Origin: Rikenellaceae bacterium
GTDB lineage: Bacteria > Bacteroidota > Bacteroidia > Bacteroidales > Rikenellaceae
Assembly (NCBI GenBank): GCA_015060105.1
Contig: SUZD01000010.1
Span: forward strand, 5,503-69,502
DNA: 64,000 nt
Reading direction: 5' to 3'
Shown: positions 13,339 through 63,146 of the stretch, in pieces
Layout of the letters: the number at the start of each line of letters is the position of its first letter
Numbering within the stretch: position 1 is the first letter of the stretch
The notes under the pieces: model-generated
What the model saw: only the letters and a program-made list of their open reading frames with translations
Told to the model about the DNA's origin: nothing
Database searches by the model: none
Position numbers and translations under genes: made by a program

Positions 13339-13415
<77 letters not shown>

Positions 13416-13417
13416 AA

Positions 13418-13446
13418 AGTCTCGATTTTGTCGAGGCTTTTTTTTA
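13418..13446 (+). terminator. Rho-independent terminator after the tRNA
   Basis: Stem AGTCTCGA/TCGAGGCT (one G-U pair) followed by T8. Confidence 0.7.
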
Positions 13447-13518
13447 TTTCCGAAAGGGATTGTAGGCCGTTTTGTTTTCTTGGCAGGAATGTATAACTTT
13501 GCAAAAAACCAACAAACG

Positions 13519-14454
13519 ATGACTCCCCGAATAAGTGTAATAATTCCCGTCTATAATGCCGAGCAATTTTTGGCGCAATGTGTCGATAGCGTGTTGGCGC
13601 AAAATGGCCTCGATTTCGAAGTGTTGCTCATCAATGACGGAAGCCGCGATCGCAGCCTCGAAATATGCCAAAATTATGCTGCGCAGGACCCGCGAGTAAG
13701 GGTGTTTGATAAGCCCAACGGAGGTGTTAGTTCGGCTCGAAATATGGGCTTGGATAATGCGCTCGGAGAGTGGGTTGTGTTTGTTGATGCCGACGACGGT
13801 TTGGTGCCGGAAGCGTTCTCGGTGCTTGCTCCGCATCTTGCTGATAATGATGTTGTTCGCTTCTCGTCACGGGATATTTTTGCCGACGGAGGAGTTCGTT
13901 ACCGTCGCCTTACTCCTGCCGCAAATCGTGACGAATCTTTTGCCCAAGTTATTGGTCACAGATCGATTTGTGCGGCTTGGAGTGGAGTGTTTCGTCGTGC
14001 GATTTTCGAGCAGCACAAAGTCCGTTTCAGCACCCAATTAACCTATGGCGAAGATTGGCTTGTTTTGGCGACAATTCTGTTCCATAGCAGCAAAGTTGTG
14101 ACGCTTCACGATGCACATCTCTACATCTATAATCGAGGTAATGATACGAGTTGTACCAACACTATGACGAGTGGAAAATTGATACAATCGATGTTGGTTG
14201 TGCGGATGTTTCGTGAGATGGTGGGCGAGGGGTGTTATGTGCGCGAGTTGAGCCACTCGCGTTGTCGCCGAGTGGGAATGTTGATTAAGCATTGTGGTCA
14301 CGCCCAAACTGCGCGCGAATTATTTGCCGTGCGCGACAGGATTGATATGCTGACGCTCAAAGATATAGTGACTTCGAAACTGCATTTGAGTCTGCGCTTC
14401 CGACTATTACGATTTTGGATTAGGTATCTTGCTTTTGCAGGGGAAGTTGCCTAA
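13519..14454 (+). CDS. Glycosyltransferase family 2
   Basis: MTPRISVIIPVYNAEQFL..LINDGSRD..VDADD. I chose the ATG at 13519, because the track start 13396 lies inside the tRNA and terminator. Confidence 0.8.
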   Translation: MTPRISVIIPVYNAEQFLAQCVDSVLAQNGLDFEVLLINDGSRDRSLEICQNYAAQDPRVRVFDKPNGGVSSARNMGLDNALGEWVVFVDADDGLVPEAFSVLAPHLADNDVVRFSSRDIFADGGVRYRRLTPAANRDESFAQVIGHRSICAAWSGVFRRAIFEQHKVRFSTQLTYGEDWLVLATILFHSSKVVTLHDAHLYIYNRGNDTSCTNTMTSGKLIQSMLVVRMFREMVGEGCYVRELSHSRCRRVGMLIKHCGHAQTARELFAVRDRIDMLTLKDIVTSKLHLSLRFRLLRFWIRYLAFAGEVA

Positions 14455-14587
14455 CAAGGTGATTTCTGCGTTGTCCTCCGATTCGCAATCCTCACATACG
14501 CCGAGTATGCTGCGGTTGCTCATCAGTCGTCCGCCTTGAAATCCCACTTGTTATACAACTTCTGGTGTAGGTAAGGTGATTTCTGCG
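14443..14587 (+). repeat. Nested-hairpin intergenic repeat, locus A (one unit plus a partial second left arm), subfamily 1
   Basis: GAAGTTGCCTAACAAGGTGATTTC...TCCTCACATACGCCGAGTATGCTGCGG...GAAATCCCACTTGTTATACAACTTCT, then AAGGTGATTTCTGCG repeated at 14573-14587. The core is shared with loci B, C and D. Confidence 0.85.
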
Positions 14588-22943: not shown

Positions 22944-23087
22944 ACGAAGCCTTGGCCGAAGCCGCATAATTAGGTGATTTCGGCGTTATGCTTACGCGGG
23001 GAGTCCTCACATACGCAAAGTATGCTGCGGCTCCCCGCGTTTCGCATGCCTTGAACTCCCACTAATTATGCGACTTCGCGGTGATTT
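22944..23087 (+). repeat. Nested-hairpin intergenic repeat, locus B (one complete unit), subfamily 2
   Basis: It starts 1 nt after the glyA TAA. Arms are CGAAGCCGCATAATTAG / CTAATTATGCGACTTCG, the middle stem is ACGCGGGGAG/CTCCCCGCGT, and the core is TCCTCACATACGCAAAGTATGCTGCGG. Confidence 0.9.
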
Positions 23088-40234: not shown

Positions 40235-41449
40235 ATGAGATTCAATAAGATACTTTTTGCTTCGGCATTGGCTCTGTTGAGCCTGTCGGTAAGCAGTTGT
40301 TACGAGAAGTTCGAAACACCGAGCGCCAAGCCCGTTTACACCTCCGAGGACTTCGCCGATATGGACCACTTGACCATCAAAGAGGTTAAGGATTTGTTCT
40401 ATGCGGAGTACACAATGGGAAGTACGGGTGTGGGCAAGAGCCTCACTTTGGACGAGGCGTTCTGGCAAGGCAAAGATATGGCCGACACCAAACACTATAT
40501 CTCGGGAAAGGTTATCAGCTCCGATGTCGAGGGTAATGTCTATAAAACCCTCTATATCCAAGACGAAACGGCCGCTATCGAGATTAAGTTGGGTAAGACC
40601 AATATCACCAACGAGATGCGCCCCGGTATGCGCGTGTTTGTGAAGATTGACGACCTCTGCATCGGCTCCTATCGCTATATGTTGAGCCTCGGACTCACTC
40701 CGAGTGAGGACGATATTGCCAACAAATACGCGAACTCCAATATGGACCTGCAAGAGATTATCAATGCACACGTATTTGTGGGCGAAATGGAGGGTTTGAC
40801 CGCCGCCGATACTCTTGTGGTTAGCGAGGGTACCCAACTCTCCGATTACGATTTGGGCCGTTTGGTGCGCTTCGAGAAACTGACCTCGACCTATGGCCGC
40901 TATAAAGGCGACTATGGCGAGGGTTATAGCAGCAGCGATGTCTATCCTTCGTACCTCGAAAGCAAAACCGACGAGAGCGGCGAAGATGTCTATAACAACT
41001 GGACATACGACCAAGTTATCACTGCCTGGAAGGAGTATTACAAGGCCGATAGCGTTTACAAAATCGAGATGGAGAACTACGCTAAACTCATCGAGGAGTG
41101 GCGCAAAGAGCTCGAAACCAACCCCTCGGCCGTAATGCCTACCGCTCCCAATATGCCCGCCGTTCCCAAATACGACGAGCCGAGCACCCTTGAATACCCC
41201 ACTTGGGCATTCAATAATGGTCTGCAACGCTACTATGGTTCGGCTCTCTTCCTGTTGGGCGCCGAGGAGTACCCCTATGTTGTGCGTTCGAGCGGCTATG
41301 CCAAATTTGCGCAACGCGAGCTTACACCCGACGGCAAGAGCATACAACTGACAGCCCTCTACTGCAAGTATTGTTCGAGCAGTGGTGGTTACGTCAAATA
41401 TCAGTTGTTGGTTAATAAGTGGGCGGATATCGTTCCCCTCGACTATTAA
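40235..41449 (+). CDS. Lipoprotein in the SusD position but unrelated to SusD; DUF5689-like (OB-type barrel) N-domain
   Basis: 404 aa with lipobox VSSC, starting 7 nt after the TBDR gene. ISGKVISSDVEGNVYKTLYIQDETAAIEIKL..GMRVFVKIDDL matches the pattern of the modules in the giant protein. The family name is from memory. Confidence 0.7.
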   Translation: MRFNKILFASALALLSLSVSSCYEKFETPSAKPVYTSEDFADMDHLTIKEVKDLFYAEYTMGSTGVGKSLTLDEAFWQGKDMADTKHYISGKVISSDVEGNVYKTLYIQDETAAIEIKLGKTNITNEMRPGMRVFVKIDDLCIGSYRYMLSLGLTPSEDDIANKYANSNMDLQEIINAHVFVGEMEGLTAADTLVVSEGTQLSDYDLGRLVRFEKLTSTYGRYKGDYGEGYSSSDVYPSYLESKTDESGEDVYNNWTYDQVITAWKEYYKADSVYKIEMENYAKLIEEWRKELETNPSAVMPTAPNMPAVPKYDEPSTLEYPTWAFNNGLQRYYGSALFLLGAEEYPYVVRSSGYAKFAQRELTPDGKSIQLTALYCKYCSSSGGYVKYQLLVNKWADIVPLDY

Positions 41450-41692
41450 CCGAAGCCTTAACGAAGCCGCATAATTAGGTGATTTCGGCGTTATGCTTGG
41501 GGCTCAAATGCTCACATACGATTAGTATGCTGCGCTTTGAGCCCCTTCGCATGCCTTGAACTCCCACTAATTATGCGACTTCGCGGTGATGTTTTGGGCG
41601 GGCGTAGTCCTCACATACGCAACGTGTGCTGTGGCTCCCAGCGTTTTGCATGCCTTGAACTCCCGCTAATTATGCGACTTCGCGGTGATGTT
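41450..41692 (+). repeat. Nested-hairpin intergenic repeat, locus C (two tandem units), subfamily 2
   Basis: It starts directly after the TAA of the preceding gene. Unit 1 has the middle stem GGGGCTCAAA/TTTGAGCCCC. Unit 2 is degenerate and shares the right arm CTAATTATGCGACTTCGCGGTGATG. Confidence 0.9.
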
Positions 41693-41738: not shown

Positions 41739-41775
41739 AAAAGGTTGTCCTATGGTGCAGGGCAACCTTTTATTG
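41739..41775 (+). terminator. Rho-independent terminator of the nuclease/TBDR operon
   Basis: 12-bp stem AAAAGGTTGTCC/GGGCAACCTTTT (one G-U pair) followed by a T-rich tail. Confidence 0.7.
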
Positions 41776-59309: not shown

Positions 59310-59786
<477 letters not shown>

Positions 59787-59789
59787 GAA

Positions 59790-60008
59790 GAAGTTGCCTA
59801 ACAAGGTAATTTCGGCGTTACGCTCAAACGGGAAATCCTCACATACGCCCAGTATGCTGCGGTTTCCCGTTTTTCGCAAGCCTTGAAATTCCTCTTGTTA
59901 TACAACTTCTATGAAAACAGCCTAACAAGGTAATTTCGGCGTTACGCTTACGCGGGGAGTTCTCACATACTCTGAATATGCTGCGGTTTCCCGTTTTTCG
60001 CAAACACT
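59790..60008 (+). repeat. Nested-hairpin intergenic repeat, locus D (complete unit plus a truncated chimeric unit), subfamily 1
   Basis: It starts 4 nt after the atpK TAA. Unit 1 runs 59790-59910 with stem AAACGGGAAA/TTTCCCGTTT. Unit 2, from 59920, has left half ACGCGGGGAG and right half TTTCCCGTTT and lacks the right outer arm. Confidence 0.9.
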
Positions 60009-61109: not shown

Positions 61110-63146
61110 TTATCCTACTTGTGAGCCGTTGCGTACGGGTTCGGTGGGAGGTACCATTACGAGTTTGCCCGTAGCGTCCTCGGCCATCAAAATCATACCT
61201 TTCGACTCGATACCTTTCAATTCGCGCGGTGCGAGGTTTACGAGTACCATAACCTGACGACCTACCAACTCCTCGGGAGTAAAGTGCTCGGCAATACCGC
61301 TTACGATAGTGCGACGGTCAATACCCGTATCAACCAACAACTTCAATAGTTTCTTGGTCTTGGCAACCTTCTCGGCCTCCAATACGGTGCCGATGCGGAT
61401 ATCCAATTTCTCGAAGTCGTCGAACGAAATCTCGGCTTTCTGTGGCTCGACGGGCTTTGCAGCCGCCTCGTTTGCCGCTTTGGCTGCGGTCAGTTTTGCC
61501 ACTTGCGCCTCGATTACGCTATCCTCAATCTTCTCGAACAGCAACTCGGCCTTTCCGAGAGTGTGTCCTGCTTCGAGCATAGTCGCAACGCCGGCATTAT
61601 CCCAGCCCAAAGCCTCGACATTCAACATACGACGCAACTTCTCGGCGGTGAAAGGCATAAACGGCTCGATGATGGTTGCCAGATTGGCGGTGATTTGCAG
61701 AGCCACATTCAAAATGGTTGCCACTCTTGCCTCGTCGGTTTTGATAACCTTCCAAGGCTCGGTGTCTGCCAAATATTTGTTACCCAAACGAGCGATGTTC
61801 ATAGCCTCTTTGAGAGCCTCGCGGAAACGGTAGTTCTCGATATTCTCCTCGACTGCCGTTTTCAGTTTGGGCAACTCGGCGATAATCTCTTTGTCGAAAT
61901 CGGTCAAACTGCCGGCCGCAGGAACTTTGCCGTCGAAATATTTTGCGGTAAGGACCATTGCTCTGTTTACGAAGTTACCCAACACGGCAACCAGCTCGTT
62001 GTTGTTGCGAGCCTGATAGTCCTTCCAAGTGAAGTCGTTGTCTTTGGTCTCGGGGGCGTTGGCGCACAACACATAGCGGAGTACATCTTGTTTGCCGGGC
62101 ATATCCACCAAGTATTCGTTCAACCACACAGCCCAATTCTTCGAGGTTGAAATCTTGTCACCCTCCAAGTTGAGGAACTCGTTGGCGGGGACATTCTCGG
62201 GGAGGATATAGTCGCCGTGAGCCTTCAACATCGCGGGGAACACGATGCAGTGGAACACGATATTGTCTTTGCCGATGAAGTGTACCATCTTGGTATCCTC
62301 GCTCTTCCAATACTTCTCCCAATCGGGTGTCAAGTCTTTGGTTGCCGAGATATAGCCGATAGGAGCATCGAACCAAACATACAAAACCTTACCCTCGGCA
62401 CCCTCGACAGGTACGGGAATACCCCAATCCAAGTCGCGGCTTACGGCACGGGGTTGCAATCCGCCGTCCAACCAACTCTTACATTGGCCATAGACATTGC
62501 TCTTCCACTCTTTGTGTCCCTCCAAAATCCACTCACGCAACATAGTCTCGTGTTTGTCCAACGGCAAGAACCAGTGAGTAGTCTCGCGCAACTCGGGAGC
62601 TGCACCCGAAATGGTGCTCTTGGGGTTGATAAGGTCGGTGGCGTTGAGTGTCGAGCCACACTTCTCGCATTGGTCGCCATACGCGCCCTCGCTACCGCAT
62701 TTGGGACAAGTACCCGTAATGTAGCGGTCGGCCAAGAATGTTTTGGCCTCGGGGTCGTAGTATTGTTGCGAGGTTTGTTGAACAAATTCGCCCTTATCGT
62801 AGAGCGTGCGGAAGAACTCCGAAGCGGTCACACGATGGGTGGGCGAAGTGGTGCGCGAATAGATGTCGAACGAGATACCAAGACCCTCGAACGACTCTTT
62901 GATAATTGCGTTATACTTGTCCACAACATCTTGTGGAGTTACACCCTCTTTGCGCGCTTTGATAGTGATAGGTACACCGTGCTCGTCGCTACCACACACC
63001 CACACTACATCTTTGCCGCGCAGACGAAGGTAACGAACATAGATGTCCGACGGAACATACACGCCGGCCAAGTGACCGATATGCACCGGGCCATTGGCAT
63101 AGGGTAGTGCCGATGTTACCAAATATCTTTTGTACTGTTTACTCAT
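61110..63146 (-). CDS. metG: Methionine--tRNA ligase with C-terminal tRNA-binding (EMAP/Trbp111-like) domain
   Basis: [26 protein letters not shown] (HIGH), zinc knuckles CPKCGS..CEKCGS, KISTSK (KMSKS), and C-terminal [15 protein letters not shown] used the ATG at 63144-63146. Confidence 0.97.

Follow-up and report, generated by a model that had tools for sequence, protein, structure and literature searches.

What does it mean when the arms of a hairpin differ between repeat copies and yet remain complementary, while the loop that they enclose stays constant? The question is raised by positions 41450–41692 of a 64,000-nucleotide (nt) stretch of a Rikenellaceae genome (contig SUZD01000010.1; hereafter the window, whose coordinates are used unless stated otherwise), where a tandem array of hairpin units lies directly 3′ of the TAA stop codon of a lipoprotein gene and 5′ of an intrinsic terminator. 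A first-pass annotation, made from the letters alone, had noted three intact units with perfect but mutually unrelated 10-bp middle stems in the window, and had taken this "complete" covariation as the signature of a selected RNA or single-stranded DNA (ssDNA) structure recognised at the loop, or else as a product of hairpin-templated repair. Here, we describe the units as members of an apparently undescribed foldback repeat of ~130 bases, which occurs in several phyla, behaves like a mobile element, and owes the covariation seen in the window to the exchange of whole stem cassettes.

Structure, covariation and spread of the repeat

The array starts a few bases 3′ of the TAA (41447–41449, + strand) that closes the gene for a 404-residue DUF5689 lipoprotein (40235–41449). 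Its first unit, locus C unit 1 (C1; 41457–41589, +; 140.8 bits against the covariance model of the family), is an intact ~130-nt foldback that forms one imperfect end-to-end hairpin, composed of an outer stem, a GGCGTT/GCCTTG internal loop, a middle stem and an asymmetric apex, with a predicted folding energy of −59.6 kcal/mol as RNA (z −7.6) and −34.3 kcal/mol as DNA (z −6.8). The middle stem pairs GGGGCTCAAA (41499–41508, +) with TTTGAGCCCC (41536–41545, +) around a conserved apex (41509–41535, +) that consists of a bulged T, a closing G-C pair and the core CTCACATACG-ATTA-GTATGCTGCG, the latter including a T×C mismatch and a bulged C. Two further intact units in the window carry entirely different middle stems: locus B (22952–23084, +; 142.7 bits), with ACGCGGGGAG (22994–23003) and CTCCCCGCGT (23031–23040), and locus D unit 1 (D1; 59784–59916, +; 143 bits), 3′ of the gene for the V-ATPase K subunit (atpK), with AAACGGGAAA (59826–59835) and TTTCCCGTTT (59863–59872). 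All three perfect stems are present in the sequence exactly as first quoted, and so are the constant core, T(C/G)CTCACATACG-N4-GTATGCTGCG, and the conserved flanks, GGCGTTA(T/C)GC and TTCGCA(T/A)GCCTTGAA. A fourth locus, locus A (14437–14569, +; 136.9 bits), has an imperfect middle stem (CGATTCGCAA/TTGCTCATCAGTCG). All four loci lie on the + strand of the window, and intact units fold with z-scores of −6.5 to −7.6 as RNA and −6.5 to −7.1 as DNA.

The head-to-tail tandem organisation proposed for locus C is likewise borne out. Unit 2 (41592–41689, +) follows unit 1 without a left outer arm; it is degenerate, with three changes in its core (GTGTGCTGTGG), its arms do not pair, and it does not fold (DNA z = +0.63). 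At locus D, the second unit (D2; 59920–60008, +) is a 3′-truncated chimera of a left arm of the locus B type and a right arm of the D1 type, and it also lacks a fold (z = +0.29). Read directly from the sequence, a conventional intrinsic terminator (GGTTGTCC...GGGCAACC and then a T run; 41743–41772, +) stands 3′ of the locus C array, which places the array within the transcript.

Sequence constraint in the family is limited to the apex, T-S-CTCA-NN-TACG-N4-GTA-NN-CTGCG-S′, with its bulged T, T×C mismatch and bulged C, and to the two short internal-loop motifs GGCGTT and GCCTTG; at every position outside these, the sole requirement is pairing. The element is strand-specific, scoring 141–143 bits on its top strand and 44–47 bits on its bottom strand. 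The bottom strand is the more stable of the two, by 5.5–6 kcal/mol as DNA in the three intact units (41459–41590, 22954–23085 and 59786–59912) and by ~5–7 kcal/mol as RNA in the two units for which both strands were compared (C1 and locus B), because conserved C×A and C×T mismatches of the top strand turn into G·T and G×A there.

To assess the stem across the family, 123 top-strand copies from ~100 loci were aligned to the covariance model. In this alignment, 92.4% of cells pair, compared to 66.5% after shuffling and 36–46% when partners were slid, and the covariation score is 0.601, compared to 0.154 after shuffling and at most 0.114 after sliding, all values being somewhat inflated by an alignment that was itself fitted to the structure. 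None of 500 shuffles attained the observed value on any measure. Changes on both sides were seen in 37 of 40 pairs, with 1218 double-change cells compared to 341 in shuffles, and all four Watson-Crick pair types are common in the middle stem (columns 68/110: GC 47, CG 34, AU 31, UA 4). Apex pairs are invariant or compensated: the two lower pairs of the apex stem covary (CA/TG to TT/AA, TG/CA or CG/CG), and CTCA, TACG, GTA and CTGCG are fixed. A structure-blind run of MAFFT and RNAalifold recovered the same compensation in the six pairs adjoining the core, and RNAalifold applied to 19 first units of the host genome predicted 40 pairs, 21 of them with compensated double changes. In fixed register, at least 10 of 12 middle positions pair in 17 of the 41 real units of this genome; the rest mostly pair at 8–9 of 12, and 8 units fall at 7 or below, about half of these being later or degenerate array units. 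The majority of these 41 units are therefore complementary, the opposite of the mostly non-complementary middles that would have reduced the three perfect stems of the window to chance or to very recent copies of distinct masters. The initial observation is thus confirmed far beyond chance, and the collected copies support a helix that is conserved as structure rather than as sequence.

The host genome is a Rikenellaceae metagenome-assembled genome (MAG) of 1.68 Mb in 21 contigs, 88% complete. An nhmmer profile built from the four window units found 45 units in 27 loci, and the covariance model (R1) found 57 matches. Units measure 125–133 nt and stand in arrays of one to three, apart from a single array in which about four degenerate units alternate; the left outer arm is restricted to the first unit of an array, later units begin at model position ~13, and the final unit is often shortened just ahead of the terminator. 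Within the genus, copy number ranges from 0 (six genomes) to 59. Among species-representative genomes, at least 117 stretches contain the 20-nt core CTCACATACG-N4-GTATGCTGCG without a change; the matches listed come mostly from Alistipes, Tidjanibacter or Rikenellaceae MAGs, and others from Moraxellaceae, Methylococcales, Desulfobacterales, Magnetococcales and further proteobacterial MAGs. The cores from distant phyla are embedded in the same architecture (GGCGTT, stem, core, complementary stem, GCCTTG), and four of five distant-phylum genomes hold 25–61 model matches each, at the same ~130-nt length. The sole Rfam 15 match in the window is a tRNA, and nothing overlaps the repeat at E-values up to 10; blastn found no match to the repeat in 50,697 phage records, 72,556 plasmids or 5,426 complete E. 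coli genomes; and the exact core is absent from IMG/VR. In the searchable literature, no description of such a Bacteroidales repeat was found, and core strings matched primers only.

Variant units were also encountered. The array of about four units (C21, ~61315–61870 of its contig, minus strand, outside the window) alternates the apex variants CTCATTTAC../..GTAAACTGCG and CTCACATAC../..GTATGCTGCG, and its outer arms (..CCACAAAACAGCAAAAAAG..GTTTTGGAG..) are quite unlike those in the rest of the host genome. In three Desulfobacterales or deltaproteobacterial MAGs (L036, L059 and L090), a neighbouring hairpin unit lies 5′ of a unit with the canonical apex, shares GGCGTTGCG with it and has a different apex (..GCTGCGGCGTACTGGCC..). 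From these neighbouring units, the GGCGTT/GCCTTG frame may be older and wider than the CTCACATACG apex.

Mosaic cassettes, mismatches and turnover

Comparison of individual copies reveals how the middle stem came to differ so completely within the window. C1 and locus B are identical in their outer arms (36 + 45 nt; distance 0.00) and wholly different in middle stem and apex loop (middle distance 0.64), and the same holds in milder form for D1 and C3 (outer 0.04, middle 0.50) and for C12a and C2 (outer 0.04, middle 0.54). The converse mosaics also occur: C1 and C12a differ in their outer arms (0.24) and share their middle (0.04), as do D1 and C20 (0.25 and 0.07), and the C1 middle recurs on contig 12 in copies whose outer stem is not that of C1. 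The "complete covariation" of the window thus reflects exchange of whole cassettes, with occasional crossovers in the conserved apex, not point-by-point compensation. The first-pass annotation was right about a helix conserved as structure, and its three stems are swapped cassettes rather than products of independent compensatory mutation. Chimeric units with arms of two types are found as well, namely D2, unit 2 at C12:150395 and unit 2 of C2, and the mismatched arms of D2 are retained in the window copy and in eight of the nine strain contigs shown, the ninth being without a second unit.

If selection maintained the helix in every copy, at the RNA or the DNA level, G·U/T pairs should be much better tolerated than A×C mismatches. 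With one conserved T·G position left out, the 123-copy alignment contains 83 cases of G·T or T·G and 113 of A×C or C×A; a count based on minimum-free-energy folds, taken no farther than 55 nt from the core, gave 58 G·T and 64 A×C. A first wobble test by folding without G·U pairs (noGU) had produced an artefactual count and was superseded by the flanked-position and model-alignment counts. Equal counts are what would be expected from neutral decay of recent perfect copies, and the stems look like young Watson-Crick foldbacks that are decaying neutrally, not like helices selected in each copy. Among top-strand mismatches, pyrimidine-pyrimidine outnumbers purine-purine by 187 to 64, and several positional C×T and C×A mismatches are conserved across the 123 copies. 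The idea of a selected RNA or ssDNA structure recognised at the loop accordingly survives in part: the apex is constant and strand-specific, and selection of the RNA type acting on each copy is not seen, since G·T does not exceed A×C. Selection would instead act where copies are made, not where they sit.

Copies turn over between congeners. Orthologues of 22 occupied gene ends of the host genome were sought in three congeners with 38–59 copies each, and occupied orthologous ends numbered 0 of 18 (G004), 1 of 19 (G007) and 6 of 15 (G015, the closest relative). Those occupied ends that were read carry different outer and middle cassettes, and one site in G015 is reduced to a left-arm remnant. 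Three prime of atpK, two units are present in the host, a single unit from a different subfamily in G004, and none in G007 or in 27 other genomes of the family; among strains with identical AtpK, the array consists of one, two or three units. Exact-protein look-ups for empty alleles at strain level returned variation in array length and no empty site.

Stop codons and the replication strand

The placement of locus C directly after a stop codon is a general property of the family. A same-strand open reading frame (ORF; at least 100 codons) stops 30–60 nt 5′ of the core in 72 of 98 first units, whereas the ends of convergent ORFs on the opposite side are scattered over 80–350 nt. At base resolution, counted from the first paired base, 66 of 90 stops fall between −5 and +6 and most often at −1/−2, such that the last A's of TAA or TAG are the first paired bases. 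Six further ORFs enter the element and use its internal TAA or TGA. One is the 352-residue ORF at locus A (13396–14454), which reads into the repeat (14439–14454) and ends on its internal TAA at 14452–14454 (..GGG GAA GTT GCC TAA); the other five are copies in other genomes, with a conserved TAA or TGA in the left arm. A tRNA gene (Rfam 61.9 bits; 13339–13412) lies just 5′ of the ORF that ends in the locus A repeat. An apparent depletion of TGA at docked stops (5 of 90 compared to a 12.5% background, p = 0.05) was set aside, stop usage being near the genome background.

At their outer edges, many copies begin with AAAA and end with TTTT. A TA target duplication was considered and rejected: the outermost TA...TA was present in only ~15–17 of 118 copies, and no consistent target-site duplication emerged. 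As read from the sequences, roughly 21 of the 27 host-genome loci have a separate hairpin with a T-run 3′ of the array, which indicates that the repeat lies inside the transcript in this genome and is not itself the terminator. Three arrays outside the window have, between their last truncated unit and the terminator, tracts of a ~9-nt unit (..CTCCCTAAC TTCCCTAAA CTCTTTAAC CTCCCTAAA..), at C4 ~79990–80045, C6 ~68925–68990 and C12 ~150330–150395 (minus strand), a second and unrelated short tandem motif. In MAGs from two distant phyla, one of Moraxellaceae (L031) and one of Bacteroidales (L052), the repeat directly follows the stop of what is seemingly the same gene, with the C-terminus ..FTGMRHF(R/K)H-stop.

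The element also resides almost exclusively on one replication strand. For 22 loci on seven contigs, the loci of any one contig are all on one strand, namely the G-rich strand that also carries rplB and rpoB. Raw GC skew of 8-kb loci proved to be confounded by the coding strand (r = 0.58) and was replaced by a coding-corrected skew at third codon positions (GC3), in which the replication component is separated from the coding effect by means of the third-position skews of + and − genes. On the element strand, this corrected skew takes positive values in 24 of the 27 host loci (mean 0.067) and in 58 of 74 8-kb loci of other genomes (p about 1e-6). Tallied from crude ORF counts per contig, ~45% of genes are on the element strand, so that genes are not enriched there. 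Read in the coding direction, third codon positions of the host genome show a clearly negative GC skew (t about −0.07 to −0.18), and the gene-strand bias is weak or slightly reversed. One closed genome (G076) yielded only 11 weak matches, of mixed strand, which bear neither way on a strand switch at origin and terminus. With the element on the G-rich, leading strand, its top strand is on the lagging-strand template, a polarity known from IS608/ISDra2 and from the action of Y1 enzymes on REPs (PMC6006769).

Competing explanations and known repeats

We give an even chance to the explanation that the repeat is a strand-specific foldback element that is recognised at its apex, probably as ssDNA, spreads non-autonomously and is co-transcribed in the 3′ untranslated regions (3′ UTRs) of its host genes. 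The middle stem is one helix of this 125–133-nt foldback, and the three perfect stems of the window represent three middle-cassette types of the family. Recombination or gene conversion between copies would transfer a whole cassette, both arms together with the apex loop, and a crossover within the apex would generate chimeric, non-pairing units. The apex is presumably the recognised part, most likely in the form of an ssDNA hairpin on the lagging-strand template, and the family would spread and turn over as a non-autonomous element that either inserts at stop codons of co-oriented leading-strand genes or is retained nowhere else, 5′ of the terminators of these genes; it would therefore also be transcribed and have to fold in the mRNA 3′ UTR. 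Structure, covariation, mosaicism, docking, strand bias and turnover are direct results, whereas we infer both the mobility and the ssDNA form. ssDNA fits better than RNA because there is no wobble excess, because the polarity follows replication and because orthologous sites are empty.

Several observations weigh against this explanation. The hairpin of the bottom strand as DNA is the stronger by 5.5–6 kcal/mol, and a strand bias like the one observed could also arise if this hairpin were selected against on the lagging-strand template; the tight fit to stop codons and the co-orientation with genes are also predicted by a role at the RNA level. At least 23 strain contigs carry locus C in identical form, so that no ongoing movement is seen, and no pair of filled and empty sites with alignable flanks was obtained, which leaves the insertion junction undefined. 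An enzyme is also missing: none of the 12 genomes of the genus that carry the element has a match to PF01797 (Y1 transposase), the single match being in a genome with zero copies, and the host genome is without TnpB, IS110 transposase, reverse transcriptase or integron integrase (TIGR02249 below cut-off), with only two Xer-like recombinases recovered there. Y1 transposases are encoded in four of the five distant-phylum carriers; at the loci tested, these genes are neither flanked by the element nor on its contigs, and a link to RAYT via distant phyla was rejected for these loci. All of these enzyme absences are weak evidence, as they rest on MAGs (the host being 88% complete), in which transposase genes often remain unassembled.

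More tentatively, we consider it possible, at well below an even chance, that the family represents an undescribed class of strand-specific foldbacks (Bacteroidota, Gammaproteobacteria, Desulfobacterota and Magnetococcales) whose invariant 24-nt bulged apex is read by an unrecognised, possibly host-encoded enzyme, with insertion or retention coupled both to the replication fork, through the lagging-strand template, and to the upstream stop codon. If true, this would amount to a new mechanism of transposition or copying, or to a new 3′-end device tied to translation termination.

Among the rivals, the best to survive, although we regard it as unlikely, is a selected RNA element of the 3′ UTR, in which the terminating ribosome opens the base of the hairpin, a conserved protein that binds RNA, or an RNase, reads the apex for mRNA stability, processing or termination, and each copy is kept folded. 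Such a role would account for a position between stop codon and terminator that is always co-oriented with the upstream gene, for a stem that begins on the stop codon, for an asymmetric and strand-specific apex, and for top-strand mismatches that are mainly of the pyrimidine-pyrimidine kind tolerated by RNA helices. REP, ERIC and Correia repeats, moreover, affect transcripts. The transcript effects of such repeats have been reviewed by Croucher et al. (PMC3049150). The lack of a G·U excess over A×C, however, speaks against helices maintained as RNA, as do the broken units that are retained; the same genes do without the element in sister species (0 of 18 and 1 of 19 sites occupied), the docked genes are mutually unrelated (a putative glycosyltransferase, the lipoprotein, atpK and others), and a restriction to leading-strand genes has no reason at the RNA level.

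Next to the explanation by an ssDNA-recognised mobile foldback, we judge it improbable that the repeat is a chromosomal DNA site, that is, a polar protein-binding or architectural sequence with its orientation fixed relative to the fork, analogous to BIMEs that bind gyrase or IHF or to strand-skewed replication and repair motifs. The strong replication-strand bias and the failure to find a transposase would suit such a site, and an apex invariant across phyla would suit a universal DNA-handling protein; a copy number of 0 to 59 among congeners nevertheless argues against essential architecture, exact docking on stop codons is unexpected for an architectural site, and so are tandem arrays with broken units.

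A comparably improbable alternative is a decayed or orphan relative of REP/REPIN-RAYT systems, of an IS200/IS605-derived PATE or of a TA-duplicating MITE (a miniature transposable element with inverted repeats) of the IS630 type, the partner transposase being missing from MAG assemblies. The polarity towards the lagging-strand template, as in IS608/ISDra2 and in the substrates of E. coli TnpA-REP (PMC6006769), speaks for such an origin, together with the absence of target duplication and the Y1 transposases in four of five distant-phylum carriers. Yet no Y1 gene occurs in any of the 12 genus carriers, the sole match being in a copy-free genome; the distant Y1 genes are not flanked by the element and do not share its contigs; a whole-element foldback of 125–133 nt is unlike 20–40-bp REPs or subterminal hairpins; and TA stands on both sides in only ~15 of 118 copies. 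A purely mutational by-product, in which one arm is copied from the other through intrastrand template switching or hairpin-templated repair, with no selection on structure, would explain stems that are almost purely Watson-Crick, often perfect in the middle and free of wobble excess, but is very improbable given that chimera D2 persists unrepaired in the window copy and eight of nine strain contigs, that the two bulges (T and C), the T×C mismatch and several C×T and C×A mismatches are conserved in 123 copies rather than erased, and that mosaic pairs exchange both arms and loop together; the repair route offered by the first-pass annotation is thus not supported.

REP-RAYT systems, IS200/IS605 derivatives, TA-duplicating MITEs and integron attC sites were each considered as a home for the family and rejected on their defining features; the family is best filed among the interspersed foldback repeats of the REP/ERIC/BOX/SPRITE kind. 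With REP, BIME and REPIN elements it shares the character of multi-copy extragenic palindromes that are clustered, transcribed and mostly located in 3′ regions, being itself a high-copy extragenic hairpin (45 nhmmer units or 57 covariance-model matches, 27 loci; z −6.5 to −7.6). REP-processing enzymes act on single-stranded DNA and favour the lagging-strand template (PMC6006769), a preference that matches the strand bias of the element. REPs are, however, described as 20–40 bp long with a GTAG or CGTC tag (PMC3733652), whereas the present element measures 125–133 nt, has its conserved part at the apex, shows no conserved terminal tetranucleotide tag in the alignments, is arranged head-to-tail and docks exactly on stop codons. 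Furthermore, no RAYT gene was found in the carrier genomes of the genus, and the distant Y1 genes are not flanked by repeats, both statements being based on MAGs.

ERIC (IRU) repeats are ~127-bp imperfect palindromes of enterobacteria that occupy transcribed intergenic regions, show orientation-dependent behaviour and are not known to have a transposase. Size and whole-element foldback are similar here, but no blastn match was obtained in the complete genomes of ERIC-carrying E. coli (5,426), and the present element is found across phyla with its 20-nt apex unchanged, sits on stop codons and keeps to the leading strand only. BOX elements are built of modules, with end modules enclosing internal ones whose number varies (PMC3049150), and the arrays described here similarly comprise one left outer arm followed by n inner units. 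SPRITEs have AAAA/TTTT ends, lie near gene 3′ ends and lack an identifiable target duplication (PMC3049150), a likeness to the many copies that start with AAAA and end with TTTT. Pneumococcal BOX, RUP and SPRITE repeats mirror the coding bias, with 60–63% on the leading strand (PMC3049150), in contrast to ~89% for this element while genes are at ~45–50%; those repeats also lack a conserved apex and are confined to one genus, and the present element has a separate conventional terminator at roughly 21 of 27 host loci.

Imperfect attC hairpins of integrons, 57–141 nt in length, directly follow the stop of the upstream ORF, are conserved in structure, have extrahelical bases and act in a strand-specific manner. 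The present element is likewise stop-codon-adjacent, structure-conserved and strand-specific with extrahelical bases, and some copies begin with GCCTAAC, which fits the R″ box (RYYYAAC). In attC, however, the base (R and L boxes) is conserved and the apex varies, the reverse of what is seen here, and copies are dispersed behind housekeeping genes rather than gathered in cassette arrays, with no integron integrase found in the host genome (TIGR02249 below cut-off). PATEs of the IS200/IS605 group and IS608 resemble the element in strand specificity, in an imperfect hairpin with extrahelical bases, in the lack of target duplication and in their lagging-strand-template polarity (PMC6006769), the element itself showing strand bias at 24 of 27 and 58 of 74 loci and no duplication, with insertion as such not observed. 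They differ in carrying separate subterminal hairpins at each end and in needing TnpA, whereas the element is a single end-to-end hairpin whose genus carriers have no TnpA (Y1) and whose host genome has no TnpB. TA-duplicating MITEs (IS630/Tc1 type; Correia, RUP) differ by the flanking TA duplication, which the element does not share.

Small interspersed hairpin repeats such as REP, ERIC, BOX and Correia are old puzzles, and to our knowledge neither the mobilising enzyme nor the reason for placement is known for most of them. The present family offers several handles on these puzzles: an apex of 20 bases shared across phyla, stems that are free in sequence and still pair, base-exact placement at stop codons, and near-exclusive residence on the leading strand with no recognisable transposase. 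Taken together, these make the question of who reads the hairpin, as DNA or as RNA, directly testable. The exchange of middle cassettes between mosaic copies carries a general warning, in that covariation between repeat copies need not imply selection on each of them. Finally, the covariance model is ready for annotating gut Rikenellaceae genomes, in which assemblies are likely to break at the repeat and annotations to mistake it for a structured RNA.

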